Source: a virus
Taxonomy: Duplodnaviria > Heunggongvirae > Uroviricota > Caudoviricetes
DNA: 6,186 nt
Virus record (IMG/VR): IMGVR_UViG_2690316002_000011
Reading direction: 5' to 3' (one strand)
Position numbers and translations under genes: made by a program. Below the pieces are notes generated by a model. The model worked only from the letters and a program-made list of their open reading frames with translations. It was not told where the DNA came from and searched no databases. Shown piece after piece: positions 403 through 1,653 of the stretch; within the stretch, counting starts at the first letter, position 1, and each line of letters starts with the position of its first letter.

Positions 403-1427
403 TGGGAAGACGAAGGAAAAATCCTGAACACGAAAAATTACCTCCAAATGTATACCCAAATAAATATAGTTATGTATGGAAACCAACATCCAGAGAATCT
501 GTAACACTAACCGCCATCAAGGATGGTTTAGCTGCTTTATGGAAAAAGTATGAGGAAACTGTAAATAATCGCGATCGTGCAATGACATTCGGTCGCTTGT
601 GGGAAAAATTCCTCGCCAGCGCCTGTTACAGTGACCTTAGCCCAAGAACACAAAAAGATTATCTGCAACATCAAAAAAAGTTGCTTGCCGTATTCGGTAA
701 GGTACCAGCGGATTCCATAAAACCAGAACACATCCGTCGATACATGGACAAAAGAGGGGAACAGAGCAAAACGCAAGCCAACCATGAAAAAAGCAGTATG
801 TCCCGCGTTTACAGTTGGGGATATGAGCGAGGGTACGTGAAGGCTAACCCATGTGCAGGTGTAAGTAAATTCAAGGCCAAAAACCGCGAACGATATGTAA
901 CCGACAAAGAATACCAGGCAGTATTAAGCGTTGCACCTCTTCCTGTTTTTATCGCAATGGAAATTGCCTATCTGTGTGCAGCGAGGGTTTCCGATGTGTT
1001 ATCGCTGAAATGGGAGCAGATTGGAAACGACGGGATCTTTATCCAGCAAGGGAAAACAGGGAAAAAACAGATAAAAGCATGGAGTCCACGATTACAGGCG
1101 GCGATCGAAAAAGCAAAACAGTTACCAACATCCGCCTATGTAATCAGCAATCAATACGGCAACCGATATATGTACAAAGGCTTTAACGAAATGTGGGTAG
1201 AAGCAAGAAATCGCGCAGGCAAAATTTCAGGTATTTTAACCGACTTCACCTTTCATGATCTGAAGGCGAAAGGAATTTCAGACTATGAAGGAAGCAGTCG
1301 GGATAAGCAACTTTTCTCTGGTCACAAAACCGAAGGGCAAGTGCTAATCTATGACAGGAAGGTTAAAGTTTCACCAACACTTGATGTCCCGTTACCTGAA
1401 AATATTCCAAGACAATATTCCAAGTAA
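402..1427 (+). CDS. int: Lambda-family tyrosine site-specific integrase (341 aa)
   Basis: N-terminus MGRRRKNPEHEKLPPNVY matches the lambda Int arm-binding domain start (MGRRR...LPPNLY). The C-terminal catalytic region has R195, a K cluster at 218-225, H285, H308 and Y317 in LIYDR, with lambda-like spacing. The Arg-II position (lambda R311) is K288 in the motif FHDLKAK. Confidence 0.9.
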   Translation: MGRRRKNPEHEKLPPNVYPNKYSYVWKPTSRESVTLTAIKDGLAALWKKYEETVNNRDRAMTFGRLWEKFLASACYSDLSPRTQKDYLQHQKKLLAVFGKVPADSIKPEHIRRYMDKRGEQSKTQANHEKSSMSRVYSWGYERGYVKANPCAGVSKFKAKNRERYVTDKEYQAVLSVAPLPVFIAMEIAYLCAARVSDVLSLKWEQIGNDGIFIQQGKTGKKQIKAWSPRLQAAIEKAKQLPTSAYVISNQYGNRYMYKGFNEMWVEARNRAGKISGILTDFTFHDLKAKGISDYEGSSRDKQLFSGHKTEGQVLIYDRKVKVSPTLDVPLPENIPRQYSK

Positions 1428-1434
1428 TTCCAAG
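1401..1434 (+). repeat. Three direct copies of AATATTCCAAG / AATTCCAAG at the integrase 3' end; candidate arm-type Int-binding sites
   Basis: Copies at 1401-1411, 1414-1424 and 1426-1434, with further copies on the other side of the core (see 1581-1653). Function is inferred from position and from Int having an arm-binding N-terminal domain. Confidence 0.4.
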
Positions 1435-1479
1435 TGTGATTTTTGTCACTGACTTAATGATGTGTAAGTGATTGAATTT

Positions 1480-1541
1480 TGGCGGAGAGAGGGGGATTTG
1501 AACCCCCGGTGGAGTTGCCCCCACTCCGGTTTTCGAGACCG
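1480..1541 (-). other. 62-bp 3' fragment of a tRNA-Ser(CGA)-like gene (anticodon loop to CCA end); att core
   Basis: The reverse complement reads CGGTCTCGAAAACCGGAGTGGGGGCAACTCCACCGGGGGTTCAAATCCCCCTCTCTCCGCCA: anticodon stem-loop, long variable arm, T-arm and acceptor 3' strand. The sequence beyond 1541 cannot supply a complementary acceptor 5' strand or D-arm, so this is not a complete tRNA. Confidence 0.75.
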
Positions 1542-1580
1542 ATGATACCGAATCGCAAAATCAAAAGGTTATAAATTTTT

Positions 1581-1653
1581 CTTGGAATAAATGTCTTAAA
1601 AACATACACGAAAAATCAATAAACTACGTTGAATTCAATAAGAATATTCCAAG
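1581..1653. repeat. Further copies of the AATATTCCAAG motif on the far side of the core (inverted at 1581-1590, direct at 1643-1653)
   Basis: Read directly from the sequence. Together with 1401-1434 this gives a P-core-P' like layout. Confidence 0.35.

Follow-up and report, generated by a model that had tools for sequence, protein, structure and literature searches.

The window analysed here is a stretch of 6,186 nt from IMG/VR virus record IMGVR_UViG_2690316002_000011, and the element of interest is the region 1404-1653, which is very probably the attP-type site of a lambdoid phage that integrates into the tRNA-Ser gene serU. An earlier note, made from the sequence without database searches, had pointed to an attP-like site at this place, a proposal that is borne out by five putative arm sites, a core taken from serU and two arms that are both phage DNA.

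In the mechanism that we propose with the same confidence, the N-terminal domain of the integrase (Int) would bind five arm-type sites with the motif ATTCCAAG, three in direct orientation at the int end and one inverted and one direct on the cargo side, while the core-binding and catalytic domains of the protein would act at the anticodon stem. IHF would bend the DNA at three sites, allowing arm-bound Int to reach the core. Strand exchange would take place within 1523-1541, most probably across the 7-nt loop 1531-1537. Integration would thus split serU and rebuild it with the phage-borne 3′ 62 nt, which bring a G-C pair for an A-U pair in the variable arm, and the displaced host serU 3′ fragment would stay at the cargo end. 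A DUF4224 protein encoded next to int would be the likely excision directionality factor.

The serU fragment and the point of strand exchange

The core of the site and the interval deduced for strand exchange are as follows.

1480..1541, minus strand: 62-bp serU 3′ fragment, block of identity with attB (alignment to K-12 and to prophage junctions; ARAGORN)
1523..1541, no strand: interval containing strand exchange (allele linkage in 22 junctions; anticodon stem 1526-1530 and 1538-1541)

The core equals the last 62 nt of Escherichia coli K-12 serU (tRNA-Ser CGA) save for two positions, 1511 (G for A) and 1522 (C for T), and the identity with serU stops at 1541/1542, one base before the full anticodon stem. 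That is, the fragment is the 3′ part of a tRNA-Ser gene lacking its 5′ half, as the earlier note had described it, and ARAGORN called no tRNA in the whole window and none in 1441-1620 submitted alone. In the ARAGORN structures, positions 1511 and 1522 pair with each other as the third base pair of the variable-arm stem, which is A-U in K-12 and G-C in the window; the compensatory difference from serU described in the note is therefore correct. An intact tRNA-Ser(CGA) was called for both alleles. Two matches of the core to Rfam models were rejected as sub-threshold, one to the plastid psbI-rps4 3′UTR model (38.6 bits against a gathering score of 68) and one to split tmRNA (17.9 against 47); both arise because the T-arm and acceptor sequence is tRNA-like.

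An alignment of the window to K-12 and to prophage junctions of three kinds gave four junction types, which make up the classic set: attB in K-12 (yodB, serU, mtfA); int arm, core, serU 5′ half and mtfA; yodB flank, core and cargo arm; and int arm, core and cargo arm, the last being the type found in the window and also in the closed FORC 064 chromosome. In all 22 junctions the int arm is accompanied by the G/C allele and the yodB flank by the A/T allele. Moreover, an intact tRNA-Ser(CGA) with the phage allele adjoins int in 12 loci, and the host A/T allele at the yodB-side junctions of AMSHJX01 and SerU-LTIIb is the displaced host 3′ fragment at the far prophage end. Together with the limits of the identity block, this allele linkage places strand exchange inside 1523-1541, and every lysogen must therefore have a serU gene with 62 nt of phage-derived 3′ sequence, including the G-C pair. 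Within the interval, the anticodon loop 1531-1537 (TTTCGAG) is most probably the exchange site and would provide a 7-bp overlap, in line with the pattern commonly seen at anticodon-centred att sites (PMC4383910).

Since the core is common to both ends of a single serU prophage, the int-core-cargo joint could in principle be an assembly chimera in which the two prophage ends of one lysogen were joined via the shared 62-bp repeat, and the fact that a second junction in the window (4083/4084, see below) was reproduced in no other collection makes assembly quality a fair question. However, both variable positions of the core, the last being 1522, show the phage allele, so that a chimera would need a path switch within the 19 bp of 1523-1541, and the identical joint exists in closed chromosomes and in independent contigs. 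We consider an artefact of this kind highly improbable.

Putative arm-type and IHF-like sites

The putative protein-binding sites around the core are listed below.

1404..1411, plus strand: putative arm-type site ATTCCAAG, distal int-side copy, P′3-like; equal offset in the five other elements compared
1417..1424, plus strand: putative arm-type site ATTCCAAG, middle copy, P′2-like; equal offset in the five other elements
1427..1434, plus strand: putative arm-type site ATTCCAAG, proximal copy, P′1-like; equal offset in the five other elements
1465..1477, minus strand: IHF-like site, H′-like, ATTCAATCACTTA, one mismatch to WATCAANNNNTTR; offset -69 in all six elements
1559..1571, plus strand: IHF-like site, H2-like, perfect consensus AATCAAAAGGTTA, in the gap between the core and the inverted arm site; sole perfect match in the window
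1581..1588, minus strand: putative arm-type site ATTCCAAG, inverted, P2-like; equal offset in the five other elements
1614..1626, plus strand: IHF-like site, H1-like, AATCAATAAACTA, one mismatch, between the two cargo-side arm sites
1646..1653, plus strand: putative arm-type site ATTCCAAG, direct, distal, P1-like; equal offset in the five other elements

The 8-mer ATTCCAAG occurs five times in the 6,186 bases, every copy lying within 1404-1653 (0.36 occurrences expected; none of 200 shuffles reached five), and AATATTCCAAG is found exactly at 1401, 1414 and 1643 (0.18 expected). The arrangement noticed earlier, with three copies at the 3′ end of int and one inverted and one direct copy to the right of the core, was confirmed. 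The int stop codon occupies 1425-1427. Two of the sites thus belong to the terminal codons of the gene, and the third shares its first base with the final position of the stop codon.

The window was compared with five elements that have a related Int and a serU-type core. In all six, five sites are present at equal offsets from the anticodon loop, within 2 bp (int side, about -129, -116 and -106; cargo side, about +48 for the inverted site and +113 for the direct one), and the motif itself falls into three classes.

ATTCCAAG: the window, STEC299 and O55:H7 DEC5B (E. coli)
TATACCAA: Chris1 (circular Citrobacter phage)
TTTTCTCA: KpF5 (Klebsiella phage)
TTTTCTCA: ST64B (circular Salmonella phage)

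Residues 1-60 of Int diverge in step with the class of the arm motif: identity to the window Int is 48% for Chris1 and 31-33% for KpF5 and ST64B, as against 60-65% across classes for residues 61-330. A fixed scaffold of five sites with a changing motif and a co-diverging N-terminal domain is what would be expected of arm-type Int sites. Matches to the IHF consensus with at most one mismatch also recur in the relatives, at -69, +25 and +80, positions that correspond to H′, H2 and H1 of lambda. The H2-like offset is filled in STEC299 and DEC5B, and in Chris1 with one mismatch, and the H1-like offset is occupied by a perfect match in STEC299 and DEC5B and by a match with one mismatch in Chris1 and KpF5. 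Putative IHF-type bending sites are thus present between the arm sites and the core.

The three left copies of ATTCCAAG are in tandem, with periods of 13 and 10, and their copy number is variable, FORC 064 being short of one 13-bp unit. It might therefore be asked whether the repeats are a short tandem duplication in the 3′ end of int plus chance matches, rather than protein-binding sites. Yet all five occurrences lie inside 250 bp, their position and orientation are held within 2 bp in elements with an entirely different motif, and the right-arm sites are unchanged while adjacent bases vary. In KpF5 and ST64B, furthermore, the triplet is located 3′ of the int stop, outside the reading frame, and so the repeats are not a coding artefact. 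A mere duplication is accordingly a very poor candidate, and a role as arm-type sites is much the better account.

The missing unit of FORC 064 belongs to a tandem joint (L001 21380-21440) in which two sites of the triplet are left and the end of Int is changed in frame (345 amino acids vs 341). The copy number of the triplet thus varies, and the extreme C-terminus of Int seems to be dispensable or damaged in that element. Another feature of the int side is the palindrome GTGATTTTTGTCAC at 1436-1449, between the arm-site triplet and the tRNA 3′ end, which is nearly unchanged in ST64B (GTGATTTTCATCAC), STEC299 and DEC5B, and partial in Chris1 and KpF5. The excisionase or some other factor might bind there.

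Integrase and excisionase-like protein

The two recombination genes adjoin each other to the left of the site.

199..402, plus strand: DUF4224 protein, 67 amino acids, likely excisionase/directionality factor (Pfam DUF4224, E 1.9e-15; PHROG 1266 'excisionase', E 3e-21)
402..1427, plus strand: tyrosine integrase (int), 341 amino acids, lambda-Int-like over its full length (Pfam Phage_integrase; phmmer to lambda Int)

Int scored 43.6 bits with Pfam Phage_integrase (PF00589; cut-off 27.1), and phmmer aligned its residues 1-313 to residues 1-338 of lambda Int (1z1b, E 6e-13), both from residue 1 and including the motif MGRRR...LPPN-Y. The catalytic residues are R195, K218, H285, K288, H308 and Y317, so that the R-K-H-R-H-Y set is conserved at five of six positions. 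The protein is best explained as a lambda-type heterobivalent tyrosine recombinase, which, judging from its sequence, would bind the arm sites through its N-terminal domain; this forms part of the interpretation that we hold to be very probable as a whole. The DUF4224 gene adjoins int upstream and overlaps its start, and its product is likely to be the excision directionality factor. Members of the Int family excise in vivo, as circular DNA has been detected for ST64B (PMC12455584) and for Sp14 (PMC2669165). The reintegration of ST64B described in the former work was considered as evidence for catalysis by a window-type Int and was rejected, because it involves a different, chromosomal integrase (IntA).

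Several points speak against this interpretation. The link between Int and the lambda N-terminal domain is a weak full-length phmmer alignment, and no arm-binding-domain family was found for the N-terminus in the Pfam search. K288 (window 1263-1265, HDLK) aligns with the catalytic R311 of lambda Int (HxxR motif). The function of the arm sites rests on comparative anatomy. Finally, circular DNA of the serU prophage Sp14 was detected at a low level only, and the excisionase of Sp14 was judged to be probably non-functional (PMC2669165).

As regards the lysine at the position of R311, it is also present in all four relatives aligned (STEC299, Chris1, KpF5 and ST64B), with phmmer and MAFFT in agreement.

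Tandem prophages or a free phage genome

The order of genes in the window, from the end of exo through a xis-like gene, int, the core and the cargo to the tail fibre, was established from the listing of open reading frames (ORFs), family searches and annotated genomes. It is the vegetative order of lambda (tail fibre, b region, att, int, xis, exo) in reverse, just as the earlier note had stated. The possibility raised there, that ordinary chromosomal genes might follow to the right of 1541, did not materialise, the DNA at this place being cargo-arm sequence common to the yodB-side ends of serU prophages.

Two situations could give such an order. By analogy with sequenced chromosomes, the site of the window is probably the internal junction of two prophages residing in tandem at serU. 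A 371-bp query spanning both arms was matched over the whole joint in 11 of the 5,426 complete E. coli genomes; all of these joints are chromosomal, and each of the 11 genomes has two to four att-type places. Beyond the joint, FORC 064 has a second prophage, partly deleted, that ends in int-serU-mtfA, and O55:H7 DEC5B has a lambdoid prophage of 47 kb with genes for head and tail and the same ending; these two are explicit tandem prophages at serU. The joint is also reproduced in the 3,984-bp draft contig AICD01000018.1, which ends in repeats (99.95% over window 44-4027), and in IMG/VR contig L039 (100% over window 1-3453, joint included).

Alternatively, the window could derive from phage DNA that was not integrated (packaged in virions, circular, replicating, or present as excised copies that were abundant in the culture sequenced), and the site would then be a true attP, a reading that we regard as possible but doubtful. 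It is favoured by the gene order around the site, which is exactly that of vegetative lambda, by the existence of distant relatives with an equal site plan that are complete free phages (Chris1 and ST64B, both circular, and KpF5), and by the detection of circular forms of Sp14 (PMC2669165). In addition, the exact 79-bp junction is found on eight IMG/VR viral contigs. On the other hand, seven of these eight have identifiers whose format looks like that of isolate genomes, and they would presumably be predicted prophages. None of 50,697 phage records combines the window Int with both arms, and the two records of the phage collection that do have this Int are prophage excerpts running into serU-mtfA. 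Moreover, the cargo side is decayed, with nleH frameshifted, ykgJ and tccP truncated and a tail-fibre remnant, like the chromosomal tandem examples, and the joint is present in 11 closed chromosomes. The want of a phage record with this Int and both arms, and the decayed cargo, are the reasons why the tandem arrangement is favoured over a free genome.

The tandem arrangement nevertheless has two points to contend with. It is reached by analogy, because no junction with yodB or with mtfA lies in the window. Furthermore, the exact Int protein of the window is encoded in 1,154 blocks, and all ten of the listed places show the plain order int-serU-mtfA, so that the attP-type arrangement is the rare one.

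Genes and cargo around the site

Besides int and the DUF4224 gene, the following genes were identified in the window.

1..140, plus strand: 3′ end of an exonuclease VIII-type (RecE-like) gene, labelled 'exonuclease' at matching loci
1751..1839, plus strand: remnant of a YkgJ-family gene, the first cargo beside the site (identical stretch annotated in FORC 064 and AMSHJX01)
2255..2824, minus strand: nleF, type III effector (caspase inhibitor), 189 amino acids, apparently intact cargo gene (Pfam NleF_casp_inhib; RefSeq)
2879..3799, minus strand: nleH effector kinase pseudogene, cargo, in three ORFs of 41, 234 and 44 amino acids (RefSeq 'nleH, frameshifted')
5124-6186, minus strand: tail-fibre genes (ORF listing, family searches, annotated genomes)

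The non-essential cargo starts at about 1750 and comprises the ykgJ remnant, nleF, the frameshifted nleH, a C-terminal tail-fibre remnant and a truncated tccP. The ykgJ gene is whole in STEC299. The frameshifted nleH allele of the window was found again in many genomes and short contigs, and the adjoining nleF is unbroken. A promoter and terminator scan of 1300-1900 detected nothing.

The neighbours of the cargo arm differ in nearly every element: ykgJ and a YadA-like adhesin in STEC299, an nleG cluster in DEC5B, tail-fibre genes in noe1104, tail-fibre genes together with an LT-IIb toxin gene about 2.8 kb away in SerU-LTIIb, a GGDEF/EAL protein in Chris1 and an NleB-family glycosyltransferase in ST64B. 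The position beside attP is a hot spot for cargo.

In the region 3848-5314, a tccP/EspFU-type gene lacks the N-terminal secretion region and is fused at 4083/4084 to the C-terminal tail-fibre remnant. Its array (4084-4978) consists of 6.3 perfectly identical 141-bp EspF-type repeats (Pfam EspF, E 3e-204). Relative to IMG/VR contigs L037, L040, L038 and L042, the window shows an insertion of about 1.2 kb flanked by direct repeats of about 230 bp (3852-4082 and 5080-5310). The 4083/4084 fusion is missing from the 5,426 complete E. coli genomes, and exact scans of IMG/VR viral contigs and of species-representative genomes did not find it; it is either a rare product of deletion or recombination or an assembly artefact. 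The truncated TccP ORF, looked up with two alternative starts, likewise gave no match.

Three free lambdoid phages carry a fossil prophage end, namely ev099 (L015 2739-3200), mEp332 (L016 2051-2512) and PhiR70_1 (L018 2067-2528). It consists of 278 bp of chromosomal DNA from downstream of serU, the 62-bp host A/T fragment and the cargo arm with both arm sites; the integrase gene, about 2.4 kb away, is a different one. This resembles a scar left by imprecise excision and since fixed in a lineage of phages. The three phages were considered as free-phage examples of the attP of the window and rejected as such, given the presence of the host flank and the host allele.

Comparison with known systems

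The topology of the site equals that of lambda attP as given in its own record, in which P1 is direct and P2 inverted, followed by the core and by P′1-P′3 in direct orientation, with P′3 overlapping the int stop. Both systems have a full-length lambda-type Int, IHF-consensus sites between the arm sites and the core, a small gene, known or likely to encode the directionality factor, upstream of int, and a site of about 250 bp. They differ in the target, a tRNA gene for the window and the gal-bio intergenic site for lambda, in the length of the identity block (62 bp vs 15 bp) and in the arm motif (ATTCCAAG vs AGTCACTAT). The int-side sites of the window are about 100-130 bp from the exchange point as against 58-79 bp in lambda, because the 3′ part of the tRNA intervenes, whereas the far-arm sites are nearer to it than their lambda counterparts, at about 50 and 115 bp as opposed to 108 and 138 bp. 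The excisionase-like protein belongs to DUF4224 in the window in contrast to lambda Xis, and a lysine takes the place of lambda R311.

Among known serU prophages, Sp14 is the tccP prophage of O157 Sakai (PMC8190617), and a prophage with nleB, nleF and nleH occupies serU in O145:H28 (PMC7067040). These prophages (O157 Sakai Sp14/CP-933U, O145:H28, SerU-LTIIb and ST64B) have the same target gene and the same Int family as the window, the int record of ST64B being annotated as similar to CP-933U. They also share with the window effector or toxin cargo beside the site and a common cargo-arm sequence (PMC8190617, PMC7067040). They have been described as single integrated prophages or as free phage, whereas in the window both arms are phage-derived. 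Tandem arrays and anticodon-centred att sites are catalogued in the Islander database (PMC4383910). FORC 064 and DEC5B fit such arrays exactly, while the window holds the internal joint only and would belong to one by analogy.

Thus, serU as a prophage site, restoration of the split tRNA, crossover at the anticodon and tandem arrays were all known already, and the window is an ordinary, well-preserved case. For the five-site arm plan of this Int family, we found no published description within the limited literature accessible to us.

Significance of the site

The site resolves no open question, and its main value is practical, in that it fixes the exact limits of prophages in a common effector-carrying family of E. 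coli. It accounts for the joining of int, a tRNA fragment and cargo where no complete tRNA is present, and it draws attention to tandem prophages at serU, a source of confusion for prophage callers and for assemblies from short reads. In addition, the three motif classes on one five-site scaffold offer a natural series for the change of arm specificity in lambda-type integrases.

A more far-reaching idea, which we put forward tentatively and think rather unlikely to hold, is that the attP-type joint of co-resident serU prophages is an active substrate of Int, so that one phage backbone could leave with the cargo arm of another. If this were true, effector and toxin modules (nleF/nleH, nleG, tccP and LT-II) would be reshuffled among the phages of enterohaemorrhagic and enteropathogenic E. 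coli in a site-specific rather than a homologous manner, and the variable arm of serU would, in addition, be rewritten whenever a lysogen is formed.

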